64,000 nucleotides of DNA from Raja brachyura (lineage: Eukaryota), in contig OY740807.1 of assembly GCA_963514005.1 (NCBI GenBank), positions 20,646,001-20,710,000 of the forward strand, given 5' to 3'. A program made the position numbers and the translations under genes. The notes below the pieces were generated by a model. That model saw only the letters and a list, made by a program, of their open reading frames with translations. It was not told where the DNA came from and ran no database searches. Below are positions 6,701 to 48,700 of this stretch, one piece after another. Each line of letters begins with the position of its first letter. The stretch's first letter is position 1.

Positions 6701-9700
6701 AATTTAATACAGAGAAATGTGAGATGGTGCAATTTGGGAGCACTAACATGGGCAGGACCTGCTCAATGAATGGTAGGGCTCTGGGGGGGGGGGGTGTTGT
6801 TGAGCAGAGGGATCTAGGCGTACAGGTACATAGTGTGTTGAAAGTGGCATCACAGGTAGATAAGGCTTTTGACACATTGGCCTTCATCACTCAGAGTATT
6901 GAGTATAGAAGTTGGGAGGTCATGTTACAGTTGTATAGACGTCGATGAGGCCACATTTAGAGTATTGTGTTCAGTTTTGGACACTGTTATAGGAAAGATT
7001 TTATCAAGCTTGAAAGGGTGCAGAGAAGATTTACGAGGATGTTGCCATGACTCGAGAGCCTGAGCTGTGGGAAGAGGTTGAGCAGGCTAGGACTCTCTTC
7101 CTTGGAGTGCAGAAGGATGAGGGGTGATCTTATAGATTGTACAAAATCATCCATCGAAAGGAATAGATCAGGTAGACGCACAGAGTCTCTTGCCCAGAGT
7201 AGGGGAGTTGAGAACCAGAGCACATAGGTTTAAGGTGAGGGGGGAAAGATTTAATAGGAACCTGAGGGCTAACTTTTTCATACAAAGGGCAGTGGGTGTA
7301 TGGAAGGAGCTGCGGGGGAGGTAGTTAACATAGGTAAGGTCGCAATGTTTAAGAAACATTTAGATGGGTAGGTACATGGATAAGACACGTTTAAAGGGTT
7401 ATGGATCAATCGCAGGCAGATAGGAGTAATGTAGATGGGACATGTTGGCCGGTGTGGGCAAGTTGGGCTGAAGGACTTGTTTCCACATCGTATGACTCTC
7501 TGACTCTTAAGTCACATGTAAAATTATATATTAAATCTAAAATGTTGGAAATACTCAGCCGAACAGACAGCAATTGTGGAATGAGATGGTAATCATTTCA
7601 GGTCAGTAACCTTTCTTCTCAGAACATTAAAATAGGACTTAGAAATTGTGCAGTGGCTCTTTGATATCCAAATGAACATTCTGCATCATTGGTTTTTCCA
7701 AATGCTCGTGTTAATTGTTCTTACTAAAGAAAATGGTCTTTGTATTTATGTCTTCTAAAATGGAAAAAGTGACCCACAATAATTGCCTAATGTTGTGATC
7801 CGGTGATTAAAAAAAAACAGGAGAATGTCTTCATCTCTTTGAAATAAACCACTTGTTTAAGTATCCTTGATACATGGAACCTTAAATTTATTTTGCAAGT
7901 ATTTTCTTTATGGAGCAATCAAAGAGCATTGTGCCCGAGACGACATTGAGCAAACCCCTACACTTAGTCACTTCTCATTTTATACGGGTCTGATTCAGGT
8001 TCCAGAAAAAGAGGAGGCATAGGTAGGCATAGAAAATCATTGGATACCATTGTAAAGGTTCATTAGCTGCCTACTGTCAATGATCACACAACTAGTGCTA
8101 TTGGAATTATGGGTATCGGCTGGTCGCCTATGTTGCAGAAATCTTCTTTGTCCCAGGACTTTGTACAAGATTGTTTTATGGATAAATATGTCAATAAGAG
8201 AACAGGTTATTTAGATCTAGTATTTTGCAATGAGAAGTTAACTAAATAACTTTGTGGTTAAAGGGCCTGTCCCACCAGCATGCAACTCTATGCGATGAGC
8301 GCGACCTAACGTGGTCACTTGAGCCGTCCGGCGTCGCGGGGCCGGTCCCACTTCGATCGCCGAAATTGTGCGGTGTTCGTCCCAACATCGCGTGGGGCTC
8401 TGAAAAACTGACTATGTTAAAAAATTCCGCGCGGCAACGGCTTGTCGGCTCACAGTCGCCTCGACGCATTACACGCCGTCTCAACGTCGTGCCTCCGTGA
8501 CCCTCTCTGTAGGTGCCTCCGTGACCCTCTCTGTGTGTGGCTCTGTGGCCCTCTCTGTGTGTGCCTCTGTGCCCCTCTCTGTGTGCCCCTCTCTGTCCTG
8601 GCGAACTTACCTTTAAGACTTCGATCCAAGTTCGCCTCACTTTGCGCCGCGTTACGCCACTCACCCTACCTCCGCGCGGCCCTCGCTGCCGGTTTGATCG
8701 CGCTTGCCGCATGCAGGCGCATGCTGGTGGGAACGGCCCTGTACAGAGATCACCCGACCTCCGCGTGGCCCGCGCTTCTAGTTTGATCGCGCTCATCGCA
8801 TGGAGTCGGATACTGGTAGGACAGGCCCTTAAGGGGATTTTAAGGAAGACTGGTGAAAATATGGTAGAATTTTATACAAAGATGGGAATTTATTTTAATT
8901 TAGTCCAGAATTAAATCTAAACAAAGAAAACTACAAAGGTATGAGGCACAAGCAGATTGGGGTAAATTGGGAGTCTACATTAAATGTACAACAGTAAACA
9001 AACCATTTAAATAATTAATTATTTTATTATTTTATAGATTACAACAAATTATATATTTCTTGTAAGGCATTAAAAATAAACCATGGCTGACAGGAACACT
9101 TAAAGGTAATATTGGATCAAAGATAAGTCTTACAATGCTGCCAAAAAAGAAAAATCTTGAACATTGAGGAAATATCTAAATTTGGCAATGGGGGGCAATG
9201 GAGGTATTAATAAGGAATAAGAAACTTGAGATCTAACAAGAAGCTTAAAAATGTGTAAAAGCTGTTGTAGACATGTATAATACAAACATAGAGAGAATTC
9301 CTTTCAGCCTGAGACAAGGGAAATTTCCATCAGGGAATAAATAAATAGCAGATACATTATTTGTGTCTGTCTTCTTGGAAGAACAGTTGGTTTAGAATGA
9401 CTGGGAAATATTAGTTTTAAAAATGTAAAGGAAAAGTTAATGGGTTTGAAGGCTGATATACCCCCAGTGTCTGAAGAACCTCATTGCAATATTGTTGAGG
9501 AGATGCTGATGGAGATGGTGCATGCACTGGTTGTCATGTTCCAAATTCCCATTGATTCTTGAGTGATTCCCAGAAATTGGAAGAATGCAAATATAAACCC
9601 AGAACTGAAGAGAGGAGAGAGAAAGTTAATTGGGAATTAGAGATCAGTTAGCCTGACATCATAGAGCAAATTGCAAATCTATTAATAAGGAAATGGTAAC

Positions 9701-36700: not shown

Positions 36701-39700
36701 CAACCTGTTAAGCTCACTTTTTAAAGTTTATTTATTCTTCCATTCTATTCCTTCTTAAACTTTTGTTGACTCTTTATTTATTTTTTTCCAATTCCAGGTT
36801 TTTATTTTCAATTAGTTTTTGGTTTGCATGCAAAATCTTGCATGAGCTGCACTGTAGAGGACTGTGTTAGATAAAATATTGACGTAGGCTGTGTCATAGG
36901 GATGTGGCAAGAATTGGAAAATGGTGTTGCTAATGTGTCAGGGTCTCTTTTAAGGTTAGCCTTTTTCTCCTGCCGCAGAGCACGGACTCCAGGTCATTGT
37001 CCCCAGGAGCAGAGCCCAGGTCTGCATCAAAGTCGCCAAAGGCAAAGGAAGGCAAACACTCGAAGCATAATTCCAGGAGTTTCAGGTCCAAATCCCCCGG
37101 CCACAGCAGGAGGTCCTCCGCTGAGGGAAGACACGCAAAGCCCAGGTCAAGATCACCATCCGCTCACAGAGGCTCAAGCCGACGGAAGTCGACCCTGCCG
37201 GCTCACAAAGTGTCTTCTCGCTCTCCAAGTCAATCGGACTTCAGCAGTGACTCTGCGGGAAGTGTCGGCAGTCGGTCGCGATCGCGTCATACGTCAGGCC
37301 GGAGTAAAAGCACACGAGCAAAGAAGTTAGTCCTCGCTTATTTTTCTGCTTTTCAAAAGACACAATCTTGATATTCTGCATCCCCAGCTCTCTTAAATTC
37401 CTGTCCACCTATTTTTAGGTCATTCATTGTTGACATGCCCCAATGTACTCCTCCACATTCTCCCCTCCATGGAACCTGTTCTTCAGGTTACAAATCTGGT
37501 TTTCTGGGTCATTGATCATGACGGAATGGAAATGTAGCTATAACCACATTTCGGTTCCCTTAATACCAATAAATGGACCCGGCCCCCAAAATGCAACCTC
37601 TTAGTATTGGTGAAACTGCAGTCCATTGACAAAGTTATCTTGGAAATTGGTTTCGAAAATAAACATCTGTGGCTATCTGCAGTCTGTAAGATGTGCGTAA
37701 ATTATTCACTTCCTGTCATGATTCACCCTCCAAGTCTCATTTCCCATCATATTTCACATGCTATGAGATCATTAACATTCATCTTATGGCTCGCTGACAG
37801 ACATTGAATAACAAGGCTGTGACCCATGATCTTCGTGCATCACAGCAAAACAAAAACGTCCAACACACAGAGAGGGGGAACCATATTGATTAATGCATGC
37901 TGCTCTTTTGCAGACGATCAATCAATAATTATGTGACACTTGGGGCTTGAATATAACATGAAGCCCAATCAGCAGCTCCATAACTCTTTCATTTGAACTA
38001 ATTTTCACATCCAGGCCCCATGATTTCCACTTTCCTCCCTTGATTTCAGTCTTGTTTCTCTGTTTTCCCCATGCCCCCGTCCCCTATGCAAAATGTCTGT
38101 CTTCCTTTCCCCTCTTACACATGGCAGCCTGCGTGATTGTTGTAACGTGAGCTCTTTAACAATGCTAATACACTTCCTTATAAGCAGATTTTATTTGTTG
38201 GATCACTTCCATGTAATCTTAGAGCATAACTGAGTTCACCAGAAATGGTTCAAATCCAATTTCTAGACTTTTATATCCACACAGGCACAGTACAATCATG
38301 TAATTATTCATACCACCTTGCAGTGACCCAAGTTCTGTCTATGTTGTCATATTCTTCTTCATTAAAGTAAGCTTAACATAAATTTAACCACAACACATAG
38401 TTATTCAACCAAAGTCAGGATACACTATTTATAAGCACTCCTGTGAGTTTGGGTTTCATTTTGTTGAAACTGCTTGTGTTCCATTCATGCCTGATTTTTT
38501 ATTATTTAAGGTGTTGTGTAGGCATTGCACCCAGTGTGAAAAGTTAAAATACTTTCATGAAGTGCTCCCGGTCAAACTGGCCAACATGAATCAAAAATGT
38601 ACTAGTTAGAGTCATGCTTTATACAAAAGATACGTGTTGAGGAAATTGCTGCAGGAATTTTGCAGAATCCTCAACAAAGCCCCATTTGACTAGTTTTACC
38701 AATAATTGTCCATTCATAAGAGCAGTGAATTGCTGATGATTGCACAGTGTTTAGTTGTAATGATGTGTCCTCATATAATCAAGGATTCCATGCCTGCCTA
38801 AAGCAAGGTCTGGCCAACATTTGGTTCATTACAAGCGGTAGGTAACACACAAATGTCAGGCAATGATCCGTTCCATTCAGTACGAGCCTGCCACTGTGAT
38901 ATGATCACTATGTCCTCAGCATCCCAGCATTGACCAGAAATCTATTTTTATATATTTTTATTAGAGGCCATACGCATTACAAATAATATGATAATTTTTT
39001 TCAGATATATTACATCTTTCCAAAATTATATAAATATTACAAAGCCAAATATATAGGCCTCAATTTTTTTAATAGTGTGAAGAAAAAAAAAGAGTAAAGA
39101 AAGAATAGAGATTAATTTAAAGAGTGTGATTATAATTTTGATTAGAAGAGAAAAAGAGAGAAAAAAAAACATATAGCTAATAAACAATTATTATACTTAA
39201 AGATTAAAAAAACAGTATACATCTTAACAATGAATGGAACAATTTCTAATTATAATATATAGAGACAAGTATATAAATCTCAGATTAAACATTTTCGTTT
39301 GATCTTACCACCGGGTACTTGTTGAGTTTCAATGCTGAGCCCAGCTACCCCTTCATATAATCAGTGAATGGAGACCATATTTGTTCGAAAAGCTCGTGTT
39401 TATCCATTAGGATAAACCTAATTCTCTCCAATTGCAACGTCTCCAACATTGACCAGAAATCAAACTGAGCAATGCCCTGCGTAGAAGTTTAAATTTTCTG
39501 GCTTTTATAGTGAGTTGCAAATGTCTCCATAACTTCAACTTCTACATAGATTTGGTGATTATTCGAATGGTGTGGAACGGAGGGGGCCCTTGTTTTACCC
39601 ACTTCCTGGCATACGTGTACAGCTATAACTGCAATAGTCATCATAAATTCACAGCAATGATAACTGCAAATTTGCCTGAGAAGCAGGTCGGAAGCTGCAA

Positions 39701-42700: not shown

Positions 42701-45700
42701 TCTGTGGCAAAGAATTACACAGATTCACCTCATGTTGTTGACCTCCCCGTGGTGAGCCCTGTCAACTGACCTCAGTCAGGCGAACAACAACAAACAGACA
42801 CAGCAACAGCGCCGCAGCTTGGCGCCAACCCGGAGCATGCGCCCTTTTTAGGGCGGGCACCTACGGATGTCGAACCGGATGGCATCACCCTGCTGCAGAC
42901 TTCTGCTGCCTCAAACGCAAGAAGAAGACCACCCTCTGATTAAAGAAATTTCTCCACATCTCCTTCCTAAAAGAACGTCCTTTAATTCTGAGGCCATGAC
43001 TTCTAGTCCTGGACTCTCCCACTAGTGGAAACATTTTCTCCACAACCACTCTAACCAAGCCTTTCACTATTCTGTATGTTTCAATGAGGTCCCCCCTCAT
43101 TCTTCTAAACTCCAGCGAGTACAGGCCCAGTGCCGACAAATGCTCATCATAGGTTAATCTATTCATTCCTGGGATAATTCTTGTAAACCTCCTCTGGACC
43201 CTTTCCAGAGCCAGCACATCCTTCCTCAGATATTGTGCCCAAAGTTTATCACAATTTTCCAAATGCGACATAAAACCTCAGCATTACATCCCTGTTTTTG
43301 TATATAAGCCCTCTTGAAATAGAAACATAGAAAAATAGGTGCAGGAGTAGGCCATTCGGCACTTCGAGCCTGCACCGCCATTCAATGTGATCATGGCTGA
43401 TCATCCAACTCAGTATCCCGTACCTGCCTTCTCTCCATACCCCCTGATCCCTTTAGCCACAAGTGCCACATCTAATGTGCTCTTAAATATAGCCAATGAA
43501 CTGGCCTCAACTACCTTCTGTGGCAGAGAATTCCAGAGACTCACCACTCTCTGTGTAAAGAATGTTTTCCTCATCTCGGTCCTAAAGGAATTCCCCCTTA
43601 TCCTTAGACTGTGACCCCTTGTTCTGGACTCCCCCAACATTGGGAACAATCTTCCAGCATCTAGCTTGTCCAACCCCTTAAGAATGTTGTAAGTTTCTAT
43701 AAGATCCCCCCCTCAATCTTCTAAATTCCAGCGAGTACAAGCCGAGTCTATCCAATCTATCCAATCTTTCCTCATATGAAAGTCCTGACATCCCAGCTAG
43801 CAATGCTAGCATTGAGTTTGTCATTTTACAACTGATACTTTACCTTTGGATTATATGTATATCTATAAACCAAATGGAACATTTAAGCCCACCATACAAT
43901 TCATTTATATGTCTATTCCTTATGTGATAATGCTACTGAAAAATTCCCTTATTATGTCATGTTTCATAGTGTGAGATATAGTTTGTGCTCACAATCACTG
44001 CTCAGAGACTAAATCATCGAAACAAGAGATGCTTTTTTTTATTTGCGAATCTGCAGAATCGGGTGCCTCTCCCAATTGAGACACACCGAAATCAGAAAAG
44101 TAAAGCCCCTTTATACACACAATTCTGCTGGCATAACCTCCCCTTCTGACTCTTCCCAATCGGAGCACTGAGGTGCACAGTCTATAGGTACGTCCCCCAG
44201 TACCACCCACATCATACATAGCATGTTCATACATGTGTATGGTAATGAGCAATTTCTCAACTAGGGGCGTATAAGTAATATTCATTCATTTCATTAAGCA
44301 TGCCCAGTTGCAATTGACCTGGCCTAGTTTGCTCACCTCCAACTGACCTATCTCAGTTTTTTTATATCTGAACTAAAGCTAGTTTCTACTGACAAGGGTC
44401 CCCTTTCATCCCTAGTCCCTACTGACAAGGTCCCATCTATCACCCTCCTTCTACGCTATACTATGCCATCCATCCTCACTCAAGGACAGTTCTGATAAAC
44501 CCATTCCCAGCTGTGTCAATATCTTCTCCCTGGCCCCTATCGGCTAGAATCCTGTTTACAAGTTAGAATCCTCTCCTGAATCCTTACAATAGTGGGGTTT
44601 AATCACTTTATCCCTCACAATAGTTCGTCACAATGGGCCCTCACCTGGCCTAAGTACCAAGGTTCAAAACAGGTATAAATCATGTCATAATTTTAGATGT
44701 AGCTGCAATAATTAATTTTCAGGTGTTTTTTTATGAGAATGTTGTCACTGAGACCTGCTGTATATTGTTTGTGTCTTTGAACCTCAGCAAATCTCTTTGA
44801 ATATCACCATACTTCCCCAATTGTAGGTGGTTGTATAGAGGGTCTTAAACTTTAAAAGTGCAAAAAGATACAAGTTCCATGTGTTCTCTTTGGGCCCCAT
44901 TCTTGATTTTGCTGAAGTTTGCATTCTGGTGTTTACTCATGGGATTGGACAGTAATTGAAAATAAATGTCACAAATAAATTCTCAATTATAGTCCACCGG
45001 AAAGTTCACCCCTGCACCCAAACACACCAAACAAACACCACAATAGGCAAGAAAGCAGCTTGAACCAACATGAGAGAACTCTGATGTACGCAGCCTGAAA
45101 ATGCTCCCTTTCTCGACAATGTGATCTGTTGTAAGTGGGAAATGTGCCATGTGCCTCTGACTGCATATAATGTGACATGCTCTCAATCACCTTAACATCA
45201 AGTAAAGCAAAACTTGAACATATTATCAACGGCAGACTCCCTGGACACATTAGAGCCTATAAAATGCTTCAAAAAAATCATCCTTAATAAAATCGGCAAA
45301 ATAAAGCAGATTGTATAGCTATTACCTCACAGCGCCAGTGGCTTGGGTTCAATCCTGACCTCAGGTGCTGTCGATGTGGAGTTTGCACATTCAGTCTGCG
45401 ACAGCGTCAATTTCCTCTGGTTGCTCCAGTTTGCCCCCACAACCCAGGATGTGCGAGTTGGTAGGTTAATTGATCGTCATAAATTGCCCTTGTGTGTCGA
45501 TGAGTGGTGGAATATGCGGGAAGTTGTCAACATTGTGGAGAGTATAAAATTATATTTGATTAATGTAGGATATGTGTAAACGGTTGGTTGGTGGTCAGTG
45601 TGGACAGGTTGGACCAAAGGACCTGTTTCCACGCTGTATCTCTCTTTTTTTTTTATTGCATTCACAGGAAAAAGAATGACCCATTCAGCATCTCAAAGAG

Positions 45701-48700
45701 TAGGCCAAAATCTAGCCAACTCAATCTCAAGAAAGTTGAAATTTTACTTTTAAAGCAAAGTATCCAGATTGTGAATGCAGTTCAATTGGCAAATGTGTTT
45801 GCTGTTCACCCCAGTTGTCCAATAATAAATGTGGATTGCAACTTTTAATAGATGCATATGTTTCTGGTTAACCTTGCAATCATCTCTAAAAGGAAGATGG
45901 CCAAGTGAACTCATTTCAGATTTTTGTTTTCTTTATTGGTCAAGGTGTTCACCTCTCCCAAGTTGTCACCTGGCTATGGAGTATTGCTTTCTGCTTCAGG
46001 CAGAGGTGCTCTTGGAAATTAGATTATGTTATTTCTGCCAGCCCTCACTGCATTCAGCCTTACGGCATTTTAAATTATCCTACAATACATACTTCTGAAA
46101 AGCAAATCAGGTATGACAAGATTGATGAATTAGGGAACGCTATTTCTATTACCTGGGTGGAATTGGTTATAATGCTATTTTCACCAGGAACTAGAGAACT
46201 GCATAAAAGGCACTTTAAATTGACATGCCGGTAAAGCTGTCTTGGAAAAAAATAGTCTAGGGAGAAAAAAACTGCTTCCATTTCCCCTGCCCACAATAAT
46301 CAGATACCATTGTCTCTTAAGAACGCAGTCCGTCAATTTCACCACCAGTATTCATTGAAATTTACAAGTATTTGCTTTTATTGACACTTATGGATATTCT
46401 AATAAAAAGGGTAAAGGTCCTGTCCCACCTTGCCGAGTTACTCACAAAATCTCCAGAGTTTTCCTCTTGATTCGAACTCGGATAATTACAGTAATAGCCA
46501 TTCGTAGGTATTCGGGGCTTTTTTTTATCTCGTGGACATTTTTCAACATGTTGAAAAAACGTCCCGACTTATTTGATGTCCCGAGTTCCTATGGTTGGCA
46601 TTACAAGCCGCTACGAAACATCTACGGACTCCTACGGACTCGCTACTGACATTTCCCGACATTCCCCAAGTTCGAATCAATGGGAAAACTCGGGAGAATT
46701 CGTGAGTAACTCGGGAAAGTTTCAAAGGAATGCACCTATCACACTATCGCAGAACTGTTTGTATTTTGCTGTTCAAAAAGTGCAGAAAAAAAACAGATTA
46801 TTAATATCACTACCTACCTTTCCTTTTGCTTGCAACAATGTCCAGGAAATGAATAATTTTTTTCCTAGCGAATCCAGGACATGCAAGTCGATTAAAACTC
46901 TGCTTGGAGTGTCTGCGATGCACAATACCCAACAGATGTAGGGGCAAAACTGGATGAGGCATGAGATCTGTCCGTATCCCCATTGTCCTAGGCTCGTCAG
47001 GTCACAAAACAAAAATTAAGAACATCTGTTTGATTTTTCTGAAGGTTAAGGCATGCTTCAAGTCGTCACCATCGAAGGCATTACACGAGCAGGAACAAGA
47101 GCCGCACCCGGTCTCCAAGGAAGCACGAACAACCCAGCAGCCACAACTCGGACAAAAAGAAAAGCTCTTCCTACAGCCCCCGGCGCAAGAGCAGCTCCAG
47201 GAGCTCCAGCAGGTCCGTGTCCCGCTCATGCTCCCGATCGCATGATAAGAGAGATGGACGGAGCAAATCACGGTCTTTACTTCGGAAGGAGCAGTCCAGG
47301 TCGGTCACTTCCCTCCACCATGCTAAGCAGGGTGAATGTCAGTAGCTGGAGTAACTCAGCGGGCCAGGCAGCATCTCTGGTTCCTTCTCTCCAGAGATGT
47401 TGCCAGTCCTGCTAAGATACTCCAGCATTTTGTGTCTATCATTGTTACAAACCAGCATCTGCAGTTCCTTCCTACACACATGGTTATTGTAGGTATAATT
47501 GTGCAAATTCCATTTGCCTACTGTATGTAATACCAGAGAAATGGAACGCGCTAGTACTTTTGTCTGAGCTTGATTTGCAGAACTTTACTATGTTTGTTTA
47601 AAAGATGTCAGAACATTGATCATCTTGCCTTTTGCAAAATCTGGATCTGCTTCTGGCAATCACCTCTGTAAGAGGAAGGAAGCCAAATGAGCGAGTTTCA
47701 ATCCGTTAAAGAGATCAAACTTTTTTCCTTAATTGGTCAAGGTGTTCACGTTTTCTAAAATTGCTCAGCCTTCATTTAATTTATTTACATATTCCATTCC
47801 TGTTTTAGTTGTAAAAGCTGTCAAATTATCTTTTTATCTTGTCTGAGATAATTGCTCTGCTACGATGTCTGTTTATTTTTTATTTATTATAATTTTATTA
47901 TTTAAGAAAATAGATGCTATTTGCAGTAATATAAATGGAAGATCATCATCTCAAAAAACTCAATCAAATGTGCAGACCTGGATATTCTTGTGTGCAGTTT
48001 TGGATATTCTTGCAGCAAAGATACTGTGTTAGATGAGGGGAAATTAACCAGACTAGATCTGTACTCTCTTTAATTTGCAAGAACAAGGGATGATAAAACA
48101 TAGAACTGTACAGTCCAGAATCAAGCACTGTGGCCTACGATGGCTCTGCTGCACATGATGTCAGTTTAAACTGTACATTTGTCTGCACATGATCTATAGT
48201 CCTCCATTCCCTGCCTATTCATGTCTTACATAAATGTCTCCTACTTGCTGTCATTTCTACTTCCTCTACTTTTCCTGGCAGCATATTCCAGACACCTACC
48301 AATCTCTGTGTAAAAAAATGTGTCACATGAATCGTGTTTAAACTTTCCTCCTCCCACCTTAAATCTGTGCCCTCCAATATTTGAAATTTCCACTGTGGAA
48401 AAAAGACTGTCTACTCTGTCCATGTCTCTCATCATTTCATAATTTCTTGTCAGGTTGCCCCTCAGCCTCCGACACTCGAGAGAACATAATTCTTACAAGA
48501 ATGATCCCAGGAATGAGTAGTTAACCTATGATGATCATTTGTCAGCACTGGGCCTGTACTCGCTGGAGTTTAGAAGAATGAGGGGGAACCTCGTTGAAAC
48601 ATACAGAATAGTGAAAGGCTTGGATAGAGTGGATGTGGAAAGGATGTTTCCACTAGTGGGAGAGTCTAGGACTAGAGATCAGAATTAAAGGACATTCTCT

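Follow-up and report, generated by a model that had tools for sequence, protein, structure and literature searches.

A short retroposon with a predicted ribozyme head in Raja brachyura, and a probable retrotransposon donor of the mammalian CPEB3 ribozyme

The CPEB3 ribozyme has been studied as a single-copy mammalian RNA linked to memory. It is active, intronic, conserved and restricted to mammals (PMC8233481, excerpts). In a general statement, the HDV ribozymes of amniotes are held to be likely domesticated (PMC7761336), and neither PMC8256844 nor PMC10919898, in the excerpts, puts forward a donor of the CPEB3 ribozyme. Six LINE clades are credited with 5′ ribozymes, i.e., R1, R2, R4, RTE, Ingi as well as LOA; Vingi is not one of these six (PMC5786205, excerpts). 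Vingi elements have a compact single ORF, with an APE endonuclease followed by a reverse transcriptase (RT), and, unlike Ingi, no RNase H; Vingi-1_Acar, keeping the 5′ UTR native to it, has become a tool for inserting genes (both from PMC13708176, excerpts). A whole-word literature search, with Repbase, the full Rfam lists and patents outside its scope, found no paper that joins CPEB3 and Vingi, and none mentioning both Vingi and a ribozyme that ties the two together in its excerpted text. A prior statement of a Vingi origin of the CPEB3 ribozyme is possible.

NARTc and RIME are short, internally deleted derivatives of L1Tc and ingi that carry the Pr77 HDV-like ribozyme, and the NARTc/L1Tc ribozyme is an experimentally tested precedent (PMC4035085, excerpts). 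The R2 SIDE elements are also ribozyme-headed internal-deletion derivatives of a LINE (PMC3414825, excerpts). The family analyzed here is represented by one copy in a 64,000-nucleotide stretch of Raja brachyura DNA, which we call the window. Like NARTc and RIME (PMC4035085, excerpts), it is a non-autonomous internal deletion of an APE-type LINE with a 5′-terminal HDV-like fold. It differs from them in its vertebrate host, in a parent without RNase H, in its AAG tail, in a three-part short form that keeps 29 codons of the ORF start, and in that its ribozyme is a predicted one. R2, in the SIDE excerpts, is specific to an rDNA site and has a restriction-like endonuclease, whereas the focal family is found at dispersed sites. 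As in the focal family, the derivatives of Vingi-1_EE include many different internally deleted forms of a single-ORF LINE of ~3 kb, and SINE2-1_ACar and SINE2-1_AMi, which are SINEs derived from Vingi, have a tRNA head that the focal element lacks (PMC5786205 and PMC4494074, excerpts). The printed 5′ end of Vingi-2_Gav has a head geometry identical to that of the focal family (PMC5786205, excerpts). Taken alone, the focal element is a vertebrate counterpart of NARTc/RIME.

The insert, its copies and its host intron

A 199-nt insert, window 42729–42927, is one copy of a family of hundreds. We consider it very probable that this short element was derived by deletion from a single-ORF LINE, likely a Vingi, and that it is headed by a predicted HDV-like self-cutting ribozyme. 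The features discussed below are as follows; those within the first 64 nt refer to the predicted fold.

42729..42927, + strand: non-autonomous internal-deletion derivative of a likely Vingi-type LINE, lacking the first four bases (sequence, copies, junctions)
42729..42792, + strand: predicted HDV-like ribozyme fold, element positions 5–68 (sequence, Rfam on an intact copy, covariation)
42729–42731, + strand: P1 remnant
42732, + strand: J1/2 A
42733–42740 with 42785–42792, + strand: P2
42741–42743 with 42751–42753, + strand: P3
42744–42750, + strand: L3
42754–42760, + strand: P1′
42761–42762, + strand: GT
42763–42780, + strand: P4 region, stem 42766–42770 with 42775–42779
42781, + strand: predicted catalytic C
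42793..42809, + strand: rest of the retained LINE 5′ UTR (comparison with long copies L091, L099, L110 and L111)
42810..42898, + strand: LINE ORF start, 29 codons at 42812–42898 (match to long copies, translation)
42899..42927, + strand: last base of the LINE stop codon, 19-nt 3′ UTR at 42900–42918 and three AAG repeats at 42919–42927 (3′ ends of L101, L104, L110 and L112)
42888..43277, − strand: presumed CR1-type ORF2 C-terminal remnant with the element inserted in its 3′ part (open frame, empty-site joints)
36934..37368, + strand: RS-rich frame that contains the upstream exon of an SRRM3-like host gene (open frame; cwf21 and SRRM_C matches)
47043..47342, + strand: RS-rich frame that contains the downstream exon of the same gene (open frame)

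A check of the sequence placed every element of the original prediction where it had been put. That the insert belongs to a repeat family, as was proposed, is borne out by a DNA search of the genome, which gave 960 first-look candidates; 40 were scored, namely the window copy and 39 others with 93–96% identity over ~200 nt. A 27-nt tail pattern had 115 exact matches and a control pattern had none. In a sample of 49 full-length copies that is biased to good matches, the copies diverge from the most frequent letter by 4.0% at non-CpG and 12.5% at CpG positions. The window copy departs from the column majority at positions 1–4 and at four others.

Base 42726 is joined to 42928 in contigs from all four sequencing runs compared, and thus the insert interrupts an otherwise continuous repeat. 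The surrounding repeat, which we take to be a CR1, is therefore split in its 3′ segment, as had been read from the window. The first ~40 nt of the stop-free frame at 42888..43277 are element sequence. None of the contigs listed spans the focal junction. Presumed-RNA contigs cover the element and carry neither strand nor end information, and an expression look-up gave no RNA data set with the element among those listed. In one related organism (runs X6, X15 and X17), contigs of high depth carry a variant of the short element that may be a younger subfamily; contig depth is no measure of copy number. Within the head this variant is changed in the P4 loop alone, and its other differences lie beyond the head.

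The insert fits a position in a sense-strand intron of an SRRM3-like gene, as first suggested. On the + strand there is a cwf21 exon ~99 kb upstream of the window, the insert has an RS-rich frame on either side, and a later RS-rich frame has a weak SRRM_C match (E 0.0025, below the cut-off). The assignment uses a domain order that we take to be that of SRRM3. Two further open frames of the window, both on the − strand, have no Pfam match (for the first, at E ≤ 0.1): 28813–29385, with 191 Cys/His-rich codons, and 8245–8871, with 209 codons and a short tandem peptide repeat.

The predicted ribozyme head

The head matches the CPEB3 ribozyme (RF00622) in the lengths of P1 (7), J1/2 (1), P2 (8), P3 (3) and L3 (7), in the GU, the 18-nt P4 region and CGAA, and in a P1.1 of a single pair. 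The stems differ in sequence from those of CPEB3; families with heads close to CPEB3 in sequence are the sister families of this genome. Thus, the CPEB3-type label originally given to the head holds for its geometry, but RF00622 (cut-off 35 bits) gave no match at E ≤ 10 to L007, an intact copy. In the Infernal-type comparison with Rfam models that had been proposed, L007 scored 32.8 bits (E 1.4e-4) on HDV-F-prausnitzii, below its cut-off of 44, and 24.1 bits on the HDV model, also under the cut-off. The window copy scored 15.9 bits (E 9.3) on HDV-F-prausnitzii.

For covariation, seven LINE heads were compared with their segments anchored on L3, as the stems of five heads had come out of register when aligned simply by MAFFT. 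Across the seven, 120 of 126 stem cells are paired, and 16 of the 18 pairs changed on both sides; when strands are mixed between heads, 10.6 of 18 pairs form on average, versus 16–18. A descriptor requiring pairing, or inspection by eye guided by it, was the source of five of the seven heads, so the paired fraction is inflated and the two-sided changes are not. All seven heads retain the catalytic C, the AA that follows it and the core of L3; their stems turn over. A search for related proteins gave 80 metagenome loci, 34 of which include the ORF start. The strict descriptor hits 5 of the 34 regions upstream of related ORFs, none of their 34 reverse complements and none of 175 downstream windows; additional heads, decayed ones, were recognized by eye. 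The opening G1-U and, as read from columns over 88 heads, the U/C/G of L3 and the CRRA of J4/2 fit the descriptor of PMC6326823 (excerpts), from which the single-pair P1.1 departs.

It could be argued that the head is no ribozyme and that a LINE 5′ UTR happens to pair in this way by chance, as the Rfam scores lie below cut-off and minimum-energy folds are no better than those of shuffles (z −0.8 and +0.4). The folding program is blind to pseudoknots, and its result is uninformative here. The two-sided changes in 16 of 18 pairs, the clean descriptor controls, and sister heads, placed alike in related LINEs, that pass a curated model of a ribozyme all speak against chance, which we regard as extremely improbable. 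A predicted HDV-like ribozyme is the reading kept here.

Its cutting may be slow, because P1.1 is limited to one pair out of two: C22 pairs with G37, and position 38 is U, giving a C·U mismatch. The same site is GU in the RF00622 consensus as well, and GG in a close relative, L116. The core is intact in 26 of 88 heads (a few of which may be duplicates), and the catalytic C, which lies in a CpG, is T in 17 of 88. Non-CpG divergence is 3.4% in the ribozyme against 4.3% in the rest of the element, and no clear constraint on the ribozyme is seen among the genomic copies. Elsewhere, the metagenome LINEs L116 (3880–3951) and L152–L156 have a head almost identical to that of the focal family with coding DNA that is only ~63–66% identical, which could reflect either strong constraint on the head or horizontal transfer.

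In L007 all seven P1 pairs form, beginning with G1-U. In the window copy P1 is cut to three of seven, and the P1 defect originally noted is real. The perfect 8-bp P2, also noted, is present in this copy as a pairing and is not a family feature, since it arises from two CpG transitions, 42739 T and 42786 A, that happen to complement one another; the usual pair there is C-G (63 of 88 heads), with T-A in 5 of 88. A search for a distant replacement P1 strand gave one fully complementary 7-mer, 4.8 kb upstream in the intron, about the chance level.

Two later hairpins had also been described. They exist, but they lie in or at the edge of the ORF remnant, and the fold of that part is unremarkable against shuffles (z −1.3). 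A 6-bp hairpin, 42840–42855, is inside the ORF-start piece, and 6-bp hairpins occur in the same region of the focal family, L116 and family B (see below; shuffle p 0.09–0.16). In a survey in which 5 of 15 rows lacked the anchor motif, other lineages have other hairpins or none. A conserved cis element at the ORF start is suggestive only.

The parent LINE and the mode of spread

Tail-pattern loci were a poor source of the parent, as the 30 searched gave short or 5′-truncated copies only. In each of two runs, 15–17 contigs leave the intact copy at one internal point. A pattern across that point had 91 matches, and the 30 fetched show many different internal deletions. One of these loci, L084, continues into an endonuclease frame, the DNA of which had 38 matches, 15 of them full-query at 85–100%. 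No long copy scanned has an intact ORF (22 fetched; three without the anchor were omitted). L110, in the same genome as the window, runs ~3.3 kb from head to tail. Thus, an autonomous LINE sharing both ends with the insert, as had been anticipated, was found as a ~3.3-kb single-ORF element. Several of the long copies L093–L100 have common flanks and lose the 3′ end at the same point, and so these spread by segmental duplication or inside another repeat; L096–L098 carry a duplicated head. A 46-nt segment of the window, 2811–2856, matches the interior of L110 (87%) and may be an unrelated repeat inserted in L110.

In comparison with the long copies, the short element has three parts. Element nt 1–77 are LINE 5′ UTR. 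After 42809, a first deletion removed ~40–60 nt, including the start codon. Nt 82–170 are the ORF start, 29 codons that are 88–94% identical to long copies and stop at the Q of the endonuclease QLN motif. A second deletion, of ~3 kb, follows 42898. Nt 171–199 comprise the end of the stop codon, a 19-nt 3′ UTR and the AAG tail. As the whole element maps to the LINE, the label "SINE-like" should be replaced by internally deleted LINE. In the earlier interpretation the family, the four-G start, the LINE parent, Vingi as the likely clade and the sense-strand intron are supported. L007 has no tRNA, 5S or 7SL Rfam match at E ≤ 10; that is, a strict SINE head is absent.

Four frames of the genome's own LINE fragments match endonuclease (PF03372/PF14529) and RT (PF00078) families in Pfam, and four C-terminal frames have no Pfam match at E ≤ 0.1, hence no RNase H. 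Intact relatives of the protein are ~970–1050 residues long with the same domains; the named ones are from fishes, echinoderms and one tunicate, and RNase H (PF00075) is absent from all 120 relatives listed of 170. The single ORF with endonuclease and RT and without RNase H agrees with the suggestion that the parent is a Vingi. In an RT tree, the genome's own copies group with the relatives P0005 and P0004 and with metagenome loci L116/L152 (support 100/99). No labelled Vingi, Ingi or RTE element is among the rows of this tree, and therefore Vingi is the likely clade rather than a proven one. The clade name derives from the domain content and from an indirect 5′ link: metagenome locus L179 has P2 and P3 in common with the head of Vingi-2_Gav, its ORF is 37% identical to P0005, and the RT of P0005 is 71% identical to that of the genome's own copies. 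Solved structures gave distant L1 and R2 matches only, protein-cluster look-ups returned no clade names, and a supposed MER6–Vingi link proved wrong.

The ends of the copies are those of a TPRT-type non-autonomous retroposon, with target duplications of variable length, a repeat tail and ends in common with a LINE. A duplication of at least 7 bp (median 11 bp) flanks 40 of 66 copies that have head and tail, and in 31 of these 40 it ends within 2 nt of G1. The GGGG start predicted for intact copies is also found, as four G's precede the CTC remnant in 41 of the 66 and none do in five. Of 30 loci chosen by their tail alone, 19 extend to position 4 or further 5′, four start at 5–12, two at 13–68, and five lack the head. 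Very short derivatives without the ORF remnant (119–183 nt; L061, L068, L072 and L080) also occur; L072 has a 16-bp duplication and consists of the head, ~30 nt and the tail.

The three-part match to the parent, the ~11-bp duplications, the sharp G1 boundary and the covarying stems are all observed in the DNA. We propose that a copy would be transcribed by read-through from an upstream host promoter. The first 68 bases would then fold and cut the element RNA free just before G1, and the parent's endonuclease and RT, supplied in trans, would recognize the ~20-nt 3′ end and AAG tail and paste the copy by target-primed reverse transcription. Cleavage and mobilization in trans are proposed because of the L1Tc/NARTc example (PMC4035085 and PMC6765202, excerpts). 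The ribozyme-headed non-autonomous family of the original prediction is thus supported by the covariation of the fold and by the LINE parent, with activity predicted.

The main rival for the 5′ boundary is an internal promoter in the head, as in Pr77 of L1Tc. Cutting would then be slow or incidental, and the fold would mainly serve to shield the end of the RNA, to bind the LINE protein or to initiate translation. Pr77 combines promoter and ribozyme (PMC4035085, excerpts), P1.1 has a single pair in the focal family, and a sharp G1 boundary fits either route. A purely structural role would need none of the catalytic C, the AA and the L3 core, yet all are kept in the seven heads, and we judge a promoter-set boundary improbable. 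Release by self-cutting is the route we prefer.

The window copy has none of the four leading G's, and its ribozyme is likely dead because these G's of P1 are lost; with three of seven P1 pairs kept, the copy is likely an inert fossil. Its target duplication is only 2–3 bp versus the family median of 11. This junction fits truncation at insertion and also a later small deletion. It has been suggested that absence of the P1 start explains tolerance of the insert in a sense intron. In the fullest form of this proposal, the copy inserted at full length and active, and loss of P1 was later selected as cleavage harmed the SRRM3-like transcript. The sense orientation is as this would require, and the short duplication fits a small deletion across the 5′ junction. 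However, 11 of the 30 tail-picked loci begin inside or after P1, so copies are often truncated 5′ as they insert, and this could produce such a junction too; copies decay anyway, as the counts of intact cores and of T at the catalytic position show; and an active intronic ribozyme is conserved in CPEB3 (PMC8233481, excerpts). Selected loss of P1 is therefore an unlikely history for this copy.

Sister families and the CPEB3 ribozyme

Metagenome locus L179, whose head lies 223 nt before the ORF, scores 55.6 bits on RF00622 (cut-off 35). Of 11 further metagenome loci scanned, L182, a duplicate of L179, also passes, L163 and L130 score 25–27 bits, and the others have no match. In the genome of the window itself, 59 candidates were scored and at least 41 match RF00622, at least 32 of them over the cut-off, the best at 65.8 bits. 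Fourteen control genomes gave no matches. As to a ribozyme in a CPEB3 intron of this genome, the 41 matches among the 59 candidates include none that comes within 3 Mb of any of its five CPEB loci, located by their ZZ domain.

Reading 27 of the 41 by eye placed them in four families, with 12 in B and five each in C, D and E; the sister-family loci are L196–L203 and L210–L229 of this genome (G000). The head of family B leads directly into a ~3.1-kb LINE (L228; E 9e-81 to P0005), and B has short derivatives with target duplications. In L229 (G000:C4:64111500-64115600), a family C head is inverted relative to such a LINE ORF inside an 8-bp direct repeat, as judged by eye, and the arrangement looks like a 5′ inversion formed at insertion. 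Family C has the whole 7-bp P4 stem of CPEB3. Family E (L222 and L224–L227) is ~170 nt long with an AAG tail and apparent target duplications, and in its head a linker of ~5 nt replaces P4, giving a predicted near-minimal ribozyme; its parent was not found. A link to an ORF is thus seen for B and C heads, and for neither D nor E. It appears that the genome holds at least five families with predicted ribozyme heads of Vingi-like kind, four of which match the CPEB3 model.

Named Vingi elements point the same way. By hand count, with the interior of P4 left aside, 52 of 54 positions agree between the 5′ end of gharial Vingi-2_Gav and the RF00622 consensus (PMC5786205 supplement, excerpts), and the 7-bp P4 stem of that consensus recurs in the part of alligator SINE2-1_AMi that derives from Vingi (PMC5786205 and PMC4494074, excerpts). 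As the focal family shows P1, P2 and P4 to be free to vary, their identity argues for common descent and not convergence. The direction would be from element to CPEB3, because the LINEs are widely spread and the intronic copy is restricted to mammals (PMC8233481, excerpts). Because the sister families, the metagenome LINE and Vingi-2_Gav all match CPEB3, we think it probable, on these sequence comparisons, that Vingi-clade LINEs begin with an HDV-like ribozyme and that the CPEB3 ribozyme of mammals arose by co-option of the 5′ end of a Vingi element.

The value of the window copy thus lies in what followed from it, a probable retrotransposon donor for the CPEB3 ribozyme. A self-cutting head and the ~30-nt 3′ end common to amplified short copies would bear on the design of Vingi templates. 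A named donor clade makes the origin of the CPEB3 ribozyme datable and testable, and it supplies natural variants, one of them nearly without P4, for structure–function work.
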